A stretch of 64,000 nt of DNA. Origin: Candidatus Paceibacter sp. Its GTDB lineage: Bacteria > Patescibacteriota > Patescibacteriia > Magasanikbacterales > UBA922. Below, in pieces: positions 34,181 to 45,613 of the stretch (position 1 is the stretch's first letter; each line of letters opens with the position of its first letter). The stretch is taken from positions 1,504-65,503 of the forward strand of contig DYFM01000001.1 of the NCBI GenBank assembly GCA_020725175.1, given 5' to 3'. The translations under genes were made by a program, and so were the position numbers. Below the pieces are notes generated by a model. That model searched no databases and had not been told where the DNA came from. It saw nothing but the letters and a program-made list of their open reading frames with translations.

Positions 34181-34540
34181 TTACTTTTGAACATTAATCC
34201 AGCCACGTAACGTTCTGCCGGTTTCATTACAGTGTTTAGACAATTCTTGATATGTTTCTAACGGTAAGTATTTCAGATCATAGCTTAATAGAAGGAAATA
34301 TTTTACTTCTTCTAGTGAGCTCATGGCTACTTCATAAAAACGAAGGCTTTCTTTTGTAGTGTTTCGGTAAAATCCTTCAACGATATTGGCTGCTACTGAT
34401 ATCATTGCTCGGCGCATTTGGGATGTTACACCATACAATTCTTCCTTTGGAAAATTTCTCGTAACTTTGTATATTTCAAGAACTGTCTTATGTGCCATTT
34501 GCCAGGCTTTAATATCCTGAAAACGCGTTATTGTCGGCAT
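34181..34540 (-). CDS. Four-helix-bundle protein (23S rRNA intervening-sequence protein family)
   Basis: FQDIKAWQ, FPKEELYGVTSQMRRAMISVAANIVEG, AMSSLEE, LSYDLKY; ATG at 34540. Confidence 0.93.
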   Translation of the reverse strand: MPTITRFQDIKAWQMAHKTVLEIYKVTRNFPKEELYGVTSQMRRAMISVAANIVEGFYRNTTKESLRFYEVAMSSLEEVKYFLLLSYDLKYLPLETYQELSKHCNETGRTLRGWINVQK

Positions 34541-34573
34541 ACTATGAAAAATTACTAGAAACATGTTAAGTTA

Positions 34574-40682: not shown

Positions 40683-40711
40683 TTGACGGTTTTCGTTTTT
40701 TCGGCTATACT
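40683..40711 (+). promoter_or_regulatory. Putative sigma70 promoter of tRNA-Arg
   Basis: TTGACG-17 nt-TATACT. Confidence 0.65.
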
Positions 40712-40733: not shown

Positions 40734-40808
40734 GCTCTCGTCGTTCAATGGATAGGACATGGGTTTGCGGAACCCAAGATCTAAGTTCGATTCTTAGCGA
40801 GAGCACCA
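40734..40808 (+). tRNA. tRNA-Arg (GCG), CCA encoded
   Basis: GCTCTCG/CGAGAGC-A-CCA; D arm GTTC-AATGGATA-GGAC; anticodon arm TGGGT-TTGCGGA-ACCCA; T arm CTAAG-TTCGATT-CTTAG. Confidence 0.96.
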
Positions 40809-40816
40809 ATAGAAGA

Positions 40817-41163
40817 GTCGTTTCCGCCCGAGGCGGACCCGCCTTGGGCGGGCAATGGATAGGACATGGGTTTGCGGAACCCAAGATCTAAGTTCGATTC
40901 TTAGCAGGTGCACAGTGTATAGGTGTTGGTTTGTCGGGTCATCCGACCCGATCGGGTTGAATAACCCGACGGAACCCAAGATCTAAGTTCTCCTCCCGAG
41001 GCGGATCCGTCCTGGGCGGAGATTCTTAGCAGGTGCACAGTGTATAGGTGTTGGTTTGTCGGGTCATCCGACCCGATCGGGTTGAATAACCCGACGGAAC
41101 CCAAGATCTAAGTTCTCCTCCCGAGGCGGATCCGTCCTGGGCGGAGATTCTTAGCGAGAGCAC
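40817..41163 (+). repeat. Three tandem 5'-truncated tRNA-Arg copies carrying 30- and 36-nt palindromic insertions
   Basis: GGAACCCAAGATCTAAGTTC recurs at 40876, 40971 and 41096; 40906-41030 and 41031-41155 are an exact 125-nt tandem duplication; inserts at 40823-40852, 40934-40969, 40991-41020, 41059-41094 and 41116-41145. Confidence 0.92.
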
Positions 41164-41164
41164 G

Positions 41165-41191
41165 AAAAAACTGCCAATATGGCAGTTTTTT
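41165..41191. terminator. Bidirectional intrinsic terminator
   Basis: aaaaaactgcca-ata-tggcagtttttt. Confidence 0.85.
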
Positions 41192-41218: not shown

Positions 41219-43196
41219 TCAACTAGTTGTTGATGAATATTTATTTTTTAACATTTTCACGAGTGCTTCGGCCGCATGTTTCGCTAGTTCTACTTTACTT
41301 ATGTTATTTTTTCTCAAATTATCATCTCCCAATGCTTCTATCATCGTGTAACAGACACCGGATGGCAGTTCTGATAAAAGCTGTCGCCAATATTTTTCAA
41401 CTGTACTACTATAACTTTCAGCAAAAAAGTTATTTCCAAAAGGAGTATTTGTCTTTTCTCCACTTATAAGAGTTACTCCATGCTGAGTAATTGTAGCTTT
41501 TGAATCATGTTTTTGAGTGCCGGAGTTTACAGCCCGTTCTGCTTTCTGGAAAATTTCAAACGCTGTTTGTTGATCTTCGATATTTACAATCGCACTGTCT
41601 GGGGTGTCATCAAGATTATCAAGTTGTGATAAGGTGCCTTTCTTGTGAAGTTCGGTGGCAATTCTTTTCGGAATAATAAAATTATTTGTGTAGAATACAT
41701 GATGCACTTTATGTTCTTGGGGATTTCCATCCTTATCAAAGGCAAACCGTGACATGTTTGGATCCATCACACGGGCATTTTTTTTGCCGGTTGTTATTGT
41801 TGTTCCTTGTATATTAGCAAACTCTTCCATCATTTTTGAGTCGGCATTTGACATGTTGCCATAGTCGCCGCGCTCTACAGGAATGGCGTACCATCCATCT
41901 TTTTTTTTTCCTCATATGAAACATATCACCGGCTACAATGCGTAAATCTACTATACTTCCGGCTTTTTTCATTCGAGTAAGTTGCTCAATCATTTCACCT
42001 TTTCCGGTGGAACTCTCTCCGGCAAATGCAAGGCCTATCCATTCTCCGCCTTTTTCTAACTGAATCTGCACACATGCTCCGTGAACAGGTAAAATAGTCT
42101 CGCCTTCCCGAAGGAGTGCTTCCGTATTCGCCATTTCGGAAATGCACTTTTTAGCGTAAGCGTGGTATCGGTGTCCTGGATCAGTATCCGTCGTCAACTT
42201 ATCAGATAAAAATCCGACATGTACTCGCTTTCCCCCTACAGGCTGGTGAGTGTAGTAGAATCTGTCATTTAAACTGTTTTCTGTAATCGTTTCGTGACTG
42301 ACTCCTAAGAAGAGAATATTGTCAAACGTCAGACCATGGAAATTTTTCGCCACCATAAATTGCTGCGAACAGGTGACAAGTTGTTCTAAAAACGTACGTT
42401 TATTAAAAATTGCTAGCGTATTTGTAACCCCAGTTCTAAGCGGTAAAGCAAGATAATCCCCCGGAACAATGGAGTCAAGTAGGGCTTTTATTTCCGGTTT
42501 ATGTTCTTCATATTTAAATCTCCCTTTTCGTTTGTTCGAGTCGGTTGTAAATATAATTTGGTTGATGAGTGGAATAACATCTGTTACGACCGGAACTTCT
42601 CTCACTATTGTGTCCAATTTTTCGTCTCCTGTTTGTATTCGTTCTTTATCTTGATCGTTAAAATGACTATACTCAATGACAAACTCATGGGTTGGATCAA
42701 GAAAAACCGATTTGTTTTCAAAGTGGAAAGGGTTTTTTTTTGTTCCTACTGCCTGTTCTATTGCACCAAACATTTGATAGAGTGACTGTTTGAGAGTGCG
42801 AAACTTTTCAATATTCTTTGTAGTTGCTTGTTCTGTGTCTTGACTTTTCATTATTCCGTAACGAATAGAGAAGGTGGTCCAGTGATTGAATAGACTCTGC
42901 AAATCTTGTCGCAATTTTGTACGATCAACCCATCGAGGTACATTTTTATTATGTATAATATCTTGTAAAATAGGCAAATTAAGTACTAAAGGTTCATAGT
43001 TTTTTTTCCACCGAGAAAAAATAGCCTTAAATTGATTACTTCCCACAATTTCTTGGGGAGATTGACACAGTTCTTCTTCGGGAGTATCTATTGGTTCTCT
43101 TGTTGGTACCGTATCGGCTGCGGTTGCTAATGCATCTTGAGATGTGATGGGTTTGTTATATTCTGGCGCTATTCCATCATTTGTTATTATGCTCAT
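41219..43196 (-). pseudogene. PEP carboxykinase-like P-loop protein split by a frameshift at an A10 tract
   Basis: ORF 41814-43196 has LPVHGACV...AGESSTGKGE...VAGDM. Removing one A at 41900-41909 reads into DGWYAIPVERGDYGN and ORF 41219-41854 (KNARVMDP). Confidence 0.65.
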
Positions 43197-43411: not shown

Positions 43412-45613
43412 ATGAAGCTCACCACCAAAGTCAGTCAACTAAATCGCGTGGGGGAAGTGCTTGCTCGGCGATTGAAGCATCTCGGAATTGAAACCGTAGA
43501 GGATTTGTTATTTTACTATCCATTTCGATATGAAGATTTCAGTCAAAGCGAACAGATAAAAAAATTGAAAGAAGGAGAACAGGTGACGGTACGAGGAAAG
43601 GTGGAACTTATCGCCAATAAACGGAGTCCTCGAAAAGGAAAAATTATTACCGAAGCGGTGGTGGCTGATGACGCGGATCGGTTGCGGGTGGTGTGGTTTG
43701 GTCAGCCGTTTATCGCAAAAACAATTCATGTTGGAGATACGGTTTTTTTGTCCGGAAAAGTCTCTCGAGATATGTTTGGGCTGGTCATGAAATCACCGAG
43801 TTATGAAAAAGAAAAGAAACTTGCAAAACAGCACCTTGAAGATATTTCTTCACAGCAAAAAGATGGCGATATTGAACAGACGCACACTGGAAGGTTGGTG
43901 CCGATCTATTCTTTGACTGCCGGGATCACTCAAAAACAGCTACGTTTTTTGATTAGTCAGGTAATTTCACTCTCGTCAACACTGGAAGAATGGTTGCCGG
44001 TAGAAATATTGGAAGGGGCGGACTTGATACCAATTCAGGACGCGGTGAAAGCCATTCATTTTCCCGAAGATCGGACCGATTTGCAGCAGGCAAAAAAACG
44101 GTTGAAATTTGATGAACTATTTATTCTTCAGCTTCGGGCTGAAATGATCCGTCAGTCGATCAAACGCGAAGAAGCGCCGAAACTGGTATTTCAAGAAACA
44201 TTGATCAAAGAATTTGTTCAAAGACTACCGTTTACGTTGACCAATGCACAAAAGATTGCCACCTGGGAAATTTTACAAGATATTCAAAAATCGGAACCGA
44301 TGAACCGTTTGCTCGAAGGTGATGTGGGAAGCGGAAAAACGGTGGTGGCAGCGATGTGTCTGTATAACGCGGTGTTAAACGGGTATCAGGGAGTTTTGAT
44401 GGCACCAACGGAGATACTCGCGAAACAGCATTTTGAATCTATTGTTAGTTTGTTGGGAGAAGCATGTGCTGTCGCGTTGTTGACTGGTTCTGAAACTGGA
44501 AATTGTCAGCCCAAGGCTGATCCGCCTCGGGCGGAGAAATTGGAAATTGGGGAAAAAACAAAAAAGGGGAAAAGAGCGGAATTGTTGAAGTTTGTAAAAA
44601 ACGGAACAGCGAACATTATTGTTGGTACCCATGCGTTGTTGGTGGATGAGGTGAAGTTTAAACAGTTGGGATTGGTGATTGTGGATGAGCAGCATCGTTT
44701 TGGAGTAGAACAGCGAAAAACAATCCGCGAGAAGTCCGGGGTTGGTGGAATGACACCGCATTTCTTGAGCATGACGGCGACTCCAATTCCGCGTTCATTT
44801 GCGCTGACGCTCTACGGCGATTTAGATTTATCAATTATCAATCAAATGCCGGCCAATCGAAAGCCTATTCAGACACGACTCGTTGATCCGCATCAACGGG
44901 AGAAAGCCTATGGATTTATTCGATCTCAAGTGAAAGAAGGGAGGCAGGTATTTGTGATTTGTCCGTTGATTAGCAAGGAACAAGGAACAAGGAACAAGGA
45001 ACAAGATGTTGAGCCATCGCGTTTACTATCTTTGCAGGATGAGAGAAAGACCGTGATGGAGGAATATGAAAAATTGAAAAATCATGTTTTTCCGGATTTG
45101 CGTGTGGGGTATTTGCACGGGAAAATGAAATCGGCGGAGAAAGATGTGATGATGAAGCAGTTTGCGGCCGGAGAGATTGATATTTTGGTGTCGACGTCGG
45201 TGGTTGAGGTTGGGGTAAATATTCCAAATGCCTCGGTCATGATGATTGAGGGGGCGGAGCGTTTTGGACTCGCGCAGTTGCATCAGTTTCGGGGGCGAGT
45301 AGGGCGAAGCGAGTATCAGTCGTATTGCTTTTTGTTTACCGAAAGTCAGTCGGACAGCTCGCGAGGGAGACTGGAATTTTTTGAAAAAACTCTTGATGGT
45401 TTCAAACTGGCTGAATATGATCTCAATACGCGAGGTCCCGGAGAAGTCTATGGTACGTCCCAAAGTGGCCTCATGAATTTTCGGTTGGCAAGTATGAAGG
45501 ATACTGCTATAATCAAACTGGCCCGAGATACGGCCCGGGGAATTGATTTTGAAAAATACCCGTTACTTAAGGAAAAAGTAAAAGAATGGGAGGGGAGAGT
45601 ACATTTGGAATGA
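43412..45613 (+). CDS. recG: ATP-dependent DNA helicase RecG with two repeat-derived in-frame insertions
   Basis: RLLEGDVGSGKT, APTEILAKQH, DEQHRFGV, MTATPIPR, EVGVNIPNA, QLHQFRGRVGR, RGPGE. Confidence 0.97.
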   Translation: MKLTTKVSQLNRVGEVLARRLKHLGIETVEDLLFYYPFRYEDFSQSEQIKKLKEGEQVTVRGKVELIANKRSPRKGKIITEAVVADDADRLRVVWFGQPFIAKTIHVGDTVFLSGKVSRDMFGLVMKSPSYEKEKKLAKQHLEDISSQQKDGDIEQTHTGRLVPIYSLTAGITQKQLRFLISQVISLSSTLEEWLPVEILEGADLIPIQDAVKAIHFPEDRTDLQQAKKRLKFDELFILQLRAEMIRQSIKREEAPKLVFQETLIKEFVQRLPFTLTNAQKIATWEILQDIQKSEPMNRLLEGDVGSGKTVVAAMCLYNAVLNGYQGVLMAPTEILAKQHFESIVSLLGEACAVALLTGSETGNCQPKADPPRAEKLEIGEKTKKGKRAELLKFVKNGTANIIVGTHALLVDEVKFKQLGLVIVDEQHRFGVEQRKTIREKSGVGGMTPHFLSMTATPIPRSFALTLYGDLDLSIINQMPANRKPIQTRLVDPHQREKAYGFIRSQVKEGRQVFVICPLISKEQGTRNKEQDVEPSRLLSLQDERKTVMEEYEKLKNHVFPDLRVGYLHGKMKSAEKDVMMKQFAAGEIDILVSTSVVEVGVNIPNASVMMIEGAERFGLAQLHQFRGRVGRSEYQSYCFLFTESQSDSSRGRLEFFEKTLDGFKLAEYDLNTRGPGEVYGTSQSGLMNFRLASMKDTAIIKLARDTARGIDFEKYPLLKEKVKEWEGRVHLE
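44492..44549. repeat. GAAATTG heptamer array interrupted by the 30-nt palindrome, in frame in recG
   Basis: gaaactg gaaattg [tcagcccaaggctgatccgcctcgggcgga, 44506-44535] gaaattg gaaattg. Confidence 0.88.
44974..45006 (+). repeat. CAAGGAA heptamer tandem repeat inside recG
   Basis: (caaggaa)x4 caaga, encoding KEQGTRNKEQD. Confidence 0.88.

Follow-up and report, generated by a model that had tools for sequence, protein, structure and literature searches.

A tRNA-Arg array with clean twin-hairpin insertions in an ultra-small bacterium, and its possible tie to small GIY-YIG nucleases

Several described systems combine short hairpins, small nucleases and tRNA genes in ways that recall the locus reported here. 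The SDR elements of cyanobacteria, which Elhai and colleagues are said to have described in 2008, are reportedly hairpins of 21-27 nt that lie in heptamer repeats and in each other, and we know of no mobiliser for them. The double-hairpin elements (DHE) of mitochondria were reportedly described by Paquin and colleagues in 2000. SegB of the T-even phages is a GIY-YIG-type enzyme of larger size with a dsDNA target. In the available text of one source it is a homing endonuclease that sits at tRNA genes and drives tandem amplification of a tRNA segment (PMC13096335). Fungal and sponge mitochondrial DHE are portrayed, in the accessible part of another, as short GC-rich twin hairpins that are thought to be mobile and often lie near tRNA genes (PMC2800124). 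In REPINs, the likely mobile unit is an inverted doublet that shows compensatory changes, forms tandem clusters and is acted on in trans (Bertels and Rainey 2011, PMC3116915, whose consulted sections also name the cyanobacterial SDR); a GTAG or CGTC end tag is a further hallmark of the REPIN-RAYT pair, according to the text available (PMC3733652). Finally, the 94-aa GIY-YIG nuclease SsnA binds a hairpin only when the DNA is single-stranded, and only on one of the two strands; its cut falls upstream of the hairpin, where three bases are decisive. In the accessible text its authors note a likeness to mobile elements and show cleavage, not mobility (Chenal et al. 2025, PMC11893778).

Here, we analyse a 64,000-nt stretch of DNA (the window) from an ultra-small bacterium (genome of 1.24 Mb, 41% GC, 98% complete), in which a tRNA-Arg(GCG) gene is followed by tRNA copies plugged with twin hairpins of two families, A and B (Table 1). 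The finding is likely a variant of selfish DNA built on a hairpin plus a small nuclease, of which this locus would be a nuclease-less and inert example. Our literature search, which covered openly accessible papers, found no prior description.

Table 1. The tRNA-Arg(GCG) array and a sister element in recG, in window coordinates
Feature	Positions	Strand	Basis or remark
Sigma-70-like promoter match, TTGACG-17-TATACT	40683..40711	+	10/12 consensus match; 0.7 sites expected by chance
Intact tRNA-Arg(GCG)	40734..40808	+	Rfam, 61.7 bits
Copy 1: tRNA position 7 onward, without 5' acceptor strand, acceptor end non-native	40817..40913	+	Rfam, 27.1 bits (cut-off 29)
Family A twin hairpin (15+15) in the D arm, after tRNA position 12	40823..40852	.	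GTT/CAA junction
First 125-nt unit, opening with the 10-nt T-arm word GATTCTTAGC	40896..41020	+	Sequence identity, contig depth
Family B twin hairpin (18+18) within the anticodon, after base 34	40934..40969	.	TTG/CGG junction
T-loop doublet of family A, decayed, after position 55	40991..41020	.	TTC/GAT junction
Second 125-nt unit, same sequence as first	41021..41145	+	Sequence identity, contig depth
Family B doublet, second copy	41059..41094	.	
Decayed family A doublet, second copy	41116..41145	.	
Native tRNA 3' end, closing the array	41146..41163	+	
Terminator-like 12-bp stem with A and T tails	41165..41191	.	Inverted repeat; not called by terminator scan
Sister doublet of family A, within a 7-nt tandem repeat and in frame with recG	44506..44535	.	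Relatives empty

The anatomy described in an earlier note on this DNA, an intact tRNA-Arg(GCG) followed by three broken copies, is borne out by the tRNA call and by an Rfam search in which only the intact tRNA exceeds the gathering score and no structured RNA family beyond tRNA was found. Excising the five inserts restores an uninterrupted tRNA at each of the three kinds of junction, with 0 duplicated target bases. The two 125-nt units are 100% identical, and, as had also been noted, the acceptor ends differ: copies 1 and 2 finish in CAGGTGCAC and copy 3 in the native end. The proposal that every insert consists of two hairpins holds for the layout, but the T-loop pair has decayed (three mismatches) and does not fold into two hairpins, and the 30-nt query that accompanied the proposal is an idealised consensus whose exact sequence is absent from the array. 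Family A gives four matches in the window versus 0.00 in 100 shuffles. A relaxed tRNA scan allowing introns returned noise and was discarded. Since a promoter-like site and a terminator-like stem flank it, the array is probably co-transcribed; most likely, it is itself inert.

Among 29 loci compared in relatives, those with tRNA-Arg(GCG) hold one gene and no array, and one relative (G015) has a short 3'-end duplicate there without such an array; thus, the array is lineage-specific. For the odd acceptor end, the earlier note had suggested recombination with another tRNA-Arg acceptor end, yet no source was found: CAGGTGCAC as a tRNA-Arg end occurs in the two array copies and nowhere else in the genome. 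An acceptor end one base off CAGGTGCAC is present in 4 of 150 genomes of the order and, in the three that were seen, belongs to tRNA-Arg(GCG), and the end is likely a foreign or ancestral allele. At the nearby recG site, comparison across relatives reveals a filled state here and an empty repeat in relative G023, with the doublet absent in 13 of 13 relatives. An integrase island at the tRNA (attL/attR) was rejected, as no gene lies between the duplicated ends and, by eye, no tRNA end precedes recG. Two minus-strand frames of 211 and 460 aa, neither with a Pfam or NCBIfam match, occupy 41219-43196 between the array and recG; in several relatives recG directly follows the tRNA without them. The recG gene of another relative (G010, locus L248) carries a different GC-rich in-frame insert at about the same loop as the doublet in the window. 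Elsewhere in the window, positions 34181-34564 encode a four-helix-bundle protein (TIGR02436 / 23S rRNA IVP).

A genome-wide count of the palindromes yields 30 family A doublets at up to four mismatches, versus 0, 0 and 0 in three Markov simulations. Half of them (15/30) lie within 400 nt of a tRNA, in zones that make up 2.3% of the genome, and for the non-coding copies the figure is 14 of 21 versus 6.4% of non-coding DNA. Nine of the 30 sit in long reading frames and three are tandem twins. In the host genome, clean T-loop insertions recur in duplicates of the Gln, Pro, Arg(TCT) and Val tRNAs, and an anticodon insertion is found in a tRNA-Thr duplicate; the D-arm site used in copy 1 is filled again in a host tRNA-Arg(TCT) copy and in a tRNA-Arg(GCG) copy of genome G156. 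Both insert orientations occur in tRNA copies. Other host copies sit in 7-8-nt repeats, and short tandem repeats are enriched at family A sites (9 sites versus 1 of 645 background windows). The same G156 genome contains a tandem array of T-loop-plugged tRNA-Met ends without a nuclease. As separate observations, a tRNA-Gln(CTG) on contig C4 (76642-77200) is followed by tandem 166-nt copies with three kinds of insert, including a perfect 20-nt palindrome in the anticodon, in close parallel to the tRNA-Arg array, and a record labelled Bacillota (L079:376-445) holds a family A doublet nested in another doublet, within a tRNA-Ser duplicate upstream of a GIY-YIG gene.

Family A extends well beyond this host. 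It is present in 73 of 121 genomes of the class, with 0 for a reversed-pattern control, and at no fewer than 127 loci elsewhere in many bacterial phyla; the 80 record titles listed name Patescibacteria, Omnitrophota, Verrucomicrobiota, Planctomycetota, Bacteroidota, Chloroflexota and Bacillota. Among the 127 loci in the matches listed, ten have a tRNA within 400 nt and four a GIY-YIG gene within the same distance. None of ten sampled copies in genome G096 lies near either, nor do the two matches found in viral contigs. The idea that the tRNA copies act as an insertion sink is therefore weakly supported: it fits the distribution in the host genome but not that among the loci listed elsewhere.

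The design of the element is best seen across these 127 listed loci, where the search pattern behind the symmetry counts left the loops free. At 118 of them each hairpin, read on its own strand, has A as its third loop base, yet only 19 have two identical loops. Position -2 is T at 107 loci, and position +2 is A at 98. Each strand of the element thus presents a T-rich flank followed by a 6-bp hairpin with an NNA loop. Covariation falls within the short hairpins, with 24 loci changing both outer bases of one hairpin versus one changing only the distal pair; by eye, 19 of the 27 two-mismatch places listed are compensatory within one hairpin, mostly through one inherited variant, and one copy in the host genome covaries distally. 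This two-fold symmetry, with an A-ending loop on each strand, favours a DNA element over a functional RNA, and the repetition of one signal on each strand fits reading by a DNA-binding enzyme rather than the needs of one transcript. Target duplications, which at other insertion sites would have spoken against the earlier note, are absent in 115 of the 127 loci listed (110 expected from shuffled pairs), and the duplication that marks MITEs and classical IS elements is also absent at the five tRNA sites. These clean sites, together with the filled and empty states of recG, sustain the view that the doublets are mobile mini-elements inserted without target duplication. No REPIN-type GTAG or CGTC end tag emerged from the flank profile of the 127 listed loci, which shows only the T/A bias.

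Family B is laid out in the same way: its stems measure 7 bp, and its ATYC loops lie on opposite strands. It was found at two tRNA loci only, both in the host genome: the tRNA-Arg(GCG) array and a tRNA-Pro duplicate. With a pattern fitted to the host genome, it occurs in 0 of 200 other genomes of the class, or 1 of 201 overall, and no nuclease adjoins it. A looser pattern matched four metagenome sequences, which have neither a tRNA nor a GIY-YIG gene and were set aside as probably unrelated. In tRNA duplicates on contigs C18, C6 and C7, single hairpins replace 8-14 nt of the tRNA, whereas doublets insert cleanly.

Family A resembles each of the described systems in some features and differs from it in others. 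Like the Ssn system with its SRM/NTS repeats, as far as the available text describes it, the system outlined here ties a single-domain GIY-YIG protein of about 90 aa to dispersed GC-rich hairpin repeats in a strand-specific way, with importance for the 5' bases. It departs from Ssn in its symmetric doublet unit and in its tRNA-linked proteins, which form a group separate from the proteins that have GTCAT-type palindromes at their flanks. The published SRM pattern has 0 matches in the array and two in the genome, and family A fails it; the same pattern also gives 0 matches in seven loci that we had labelled SRM-like by eye. In its accessible text, the Ssn paper contains 0 mentions of tRNA, CPR or Patescibacteria (PMC11893778). 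REPINs, as described in the part of the source available, have a spacing of 71-110 bp, in contrast to the 30-nt doublet without spacer found here, and, unlike REPINs, family A often lies inside genes and tRNA copies and does not adjoin Y1 genes (PMC3116915). The inverted orientation is thus shared, whereas a spacer or one long hairpin, flanking by RAYT genes, an extragenic location and the end tag are not, and we therefore place family A outside REPIN membership even though it may work like a REPIN or an SDR. With the SDR it shares insertion into 7-nt repeats and nesting, and it differs from them in sequence and hosts. The DHE are organellar and, in the text available, are not tied to tRNA duplicates with stand-alone nucleases (PMC2800124), and SegB is a phage enzyme that amplifies intact tRNA genes, in a source whose accessible text does not mention hairpin inserts (PMC13096335).

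Small GIY-YIG nucleases, an association that the earlier note had overlooked, recur beside plugged tRNA duplicates. Five of the six GIY-YIG matches in the host genome adjoin hairpin-plugged duplicates, of tRNA-Lys, tRNA-Trp (two), tRNA-Thr and tRNA-Ile; the sixth lies in a 441-aa frame. The tRNA-Thr(TGT) cassette, a duplicate plus a GIY-YIG gene at C14:2140-2406, itself carries family A. Our nuclease survey covered one class and the 127 short loci listed, and family A lies within such cassettes at three of those 127 loci, in several phyla, and in three of 20 chosen regions. A tRNA lies within 350 nt at 12 of the best 30 Pfam GIY-YIG loci of the class, and eight have a clear duplicate. In a tree, a 99/97 branch separates 13 proteins that we had labelled as duplicate-linked from seven that are flanked by GTCAT-type palindromes, and of 18 further loci of the tRNA-linked group, 11 have a tRNA or tmRNA nearby and six a duplicate. 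The proteins of this group, all encoded at loci other than the array, are stand-alone, single-domain GIY-YIG enzymes of 80-95 aa with a full catalytic set: Y5, Y16, R26, H30 and E62 are invariant in 16 of 16. Among solved structures, UPF0213 and SLX1 come closest to them.

Across 120 genomes, doublet count correlates with the tRNA-linked group (rho 0.59; 0.54 given Y1) and, less strongly, with Y1 transposases (rho 0.32; 0.17 given the tRNA-linked group), in figures that ignore kinship and for which 12 of the 16 model proteins were drawn from the sampled genomes. All 20 genomes with at least five doublets have the tRNA-linked group, and 13 of these have Y1. Total GIY-YIG count correlates equally with doublets (0.59), nine of 35 genomes without the tRNA-linked group still hold one to three doublets, and 22 with the group hold none. 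Given that the total count does as well, that the genomes are related and that the model was built largely on sampled genomes, part of the correlation could reflect a common load of selfish DNA. When family A is compared with nuclease subclade, six rows, two of them paralogues from one genome, need four changes against a shuffled mean of 5.7, with 21 of 500 shuffles as low. No GIY-YIG gene lies at the array locus or was matched on its contig. The link between doublets and nucleases is an association, not a demonstration.

Combining these observations, we put at slightly better than even the chance that the three plugged tRNA-Arg(GCG) copies are a nuclease-less relic of a selfish system, in which inserts were copied in by repair after GIY-YIG nucleases encoded elsewhere, as we predict, nicked the hairpins. 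Since the locus has no nuclease of its own, it was likely acted on in trans. More broadly, the 30-nt insert has likely been spread by tiny GIY-YIG nucleases rather than by transposases, with cutting and insertion predicted by analogy with the Ssn nucleases. In our model, the nucleases, whose genes lie at other tRNA loci, would nick ssDNA at the doublet hairpins; as SsnA does upstream of its own hairpin, the enzyme would bind the NNA hairpin on each strand and cut at its 5' foot. Symmetric nicks on both strands could then be repaired so as to leave a doublet on both ends, and such ends may recombine through short shared words, such as the A and B boxes of tRNAs or 7-nt repeats, to reach new sites. 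Repair that duplicated the DNA around the insert would yield clean inserts along with local tandem duplications, and duplications of this kind are seen at tRNA-Gln, -Pro, -Lys and -Trp of the host and at tRNA-Met of G156. A hit in an only tRNA gene would be tolerated only with an intact copy left, which would explain why plugged copies persist beside intact genes. To our knowledge, no GIY-YIG enzyme catalyses clean insertion.

For the array itself, we suggest a history in three steps. A duplicate with the D-arm insert would have arisen first; the 125-nt unit, bearing two more inserts and a foreign or ancestral end, may then have entered by crossover in GATTCTTAGC and subsequently doubled. That GATTCTTAGC bounds the 125-nt unit and the native end closes the array is as expected from such a crossover. 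Generalising from this locus, we advance more tentatively, as a claim somewhat short of even chances, that the symmetric 30-nt twin hairpin is one of the smallest mobile elements known and spans several phyla. In this view, hairpin-guided ssDNA GIY-YIG nucleases would drive it while colonising tRNA genes, and genes for other stable RNAs, through their duplication, and nicking and host repair would move it with no transposase or integrase.

The alternative that fares best, which we nonetheless consider unlikely, is that the doublets spread by another route, such as host repair, template switching, gene conversion at cruciforms or some other small protein. They would then coincide with GIY-YIG genes at tRNA loci only because duplicated DNA tolerates both. 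The majority of copies do lie far from GIY-YIG genes, sites are enriched in short tandem repeats as described above, no cognate nuclease subclade for family A emerged from the six rows, and the doublet correlation is not unique to the tRNA-linked group. However, the loop base and flank are conserved strand-specifically across phyla, which suggests a protein reader, and family A directly adjoins GIY-YIG genes in several phyla.

The earlier note took the doublets for REPIN-like units and pointed to HUH Y1 enzymes. We judge it improbable that a RAYT or an IS200-type Y1 transposase moves such units in trans, with the tRNA copies as neutral landing sites. Clean insertion and the inverted doublet layout resemble REPINs, as the accessible text describes them (PMC3116915); the host genome contains four Y1 matches, one of them RAYT-like at 71.9 bits, below the cut-off of 80; and Y1 presence is weakly correlated with doublets. 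Yet a doublet lies within about 1.5 kb in none of 23 Y1 loci, four from the host and 19 from relatives (the latter being the best Pfam scorers and probably mostly IS200 TnpA), and a single-hairpin match in one. Two of the host matches are IS200-like and two are accompanied by other palindromes, those at the RAYT-like genes being unrelated to family A. Moreover, seven of the 20 doublet-rich genomes have no Y1 match, including three with 35, 20 and 17 copies that are 93, 94 and 100% complete, and the spacerless form of family A and its presence in reading frames depart from the spaced, extragenic REPINs of the available text (PMC3116915). The Y1 link is thus not upheld.

A functional transcript under selection, consisting of decoy tRNAs or a structured RNA array, was the other reading offered earlier, and we regard it as quite remote. 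In its favour, the array lies between a promoter-like site and a terminator-like stem, the inserts fall in the D arm, anticodon and T loop, and the tRNA copies fold stably. Against it, no copy has the 5' acceptor strand, the anticodon is split in two of them, the T-loop inserts have decayed, and the array is absent at the orthologous tRNA-Arg(GCG) locus of relatives. The conserved loop base is read on opposite strands in the two hairpins, tRNA copies carry inserts in either orientation, and two of the three sites simply fit the general TN/NA target bias.

Contigs from four public runs were aligned to the array as a check on its assembly. Depth on 41021-41155 is about twice that of the flank in two runs (156.8 versus 78.6; 43.8 versus 23.6), and the junction piece 41001-41050 has single depth. 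In a run from a different study, a 155-nt piece (41001-41155) shows 0 differences. The 125-nt duplication is thereby supported by independent contigs. Among the contig pieces listed, none spans the array or covers 40789-40820, and one contig, present in two runs, joins 40788 directly to 41021, so copy 1 is without independent confirmation. This join and gap could point to an assembly artefact in some of the array, mainly in copy 1, but we consider that very improbable: the join would give a tRNA with a mispaired acceptor stem and probably represents a 53-nt repeat collapsed in short-word assembly, depth and the second study back the duplication, and copy 1 holds unique sequence along with a D-arm insertion also found at other loci.

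If the nuclease reading is correct, very small hairpin inserts of the SDR and DHE type would gain their first concrete candidate for a mobiliser, and the reading would test the idea, raised but not shown for Ssn, that pairs of hairpin and GIY-YIG nuclease are mobile elements. The reading also points to a set of 80-95-aa nucleases whose candidate substrates are defined and which could serve as ssDNA tools, and it would explain false or doubled tRNA calls and 10-residue loop inserts in annotations of Patescibacteria. As a natural map, the array itself displays two families of insert and three sites of clean insertion within a single tRNA.

Other arrangements of tRNA and stable-RNA genes were seen in the course of the survey. 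GIY-YIG genes of the tRNA-linked group appear to interrupt sequence at L223 and L239 (around 1500) that, by its motif, may be RNase P RNA-like, and at L238 one lies behind a tmRNA. On C32 (1230-1430, tRNA-Val) and C14 (36330-36450, tRNA-Glu), a TCCCGAT...ATCGGGA inverted repeat splits an outer tRNA copy and holds the intact gene for that tRNA in its loop, and at L244 the loop around an intact tRNA also contains a GIY-YIG gene; these hairpin arms may act as cargo-carrying ends. In a repeat-rich stretch of C28 (1826-1898 and 2227-2300), tRNA-Arg(GCG) occurs a second time, in divergent form, along with an unusual call of tRNA-Gly(ACC), and a tRNA-Ser with the called anticodon ACT adjoins tRNA-Ser(TGA) both on C1 (13605-13693) and at L237 in genome G135.
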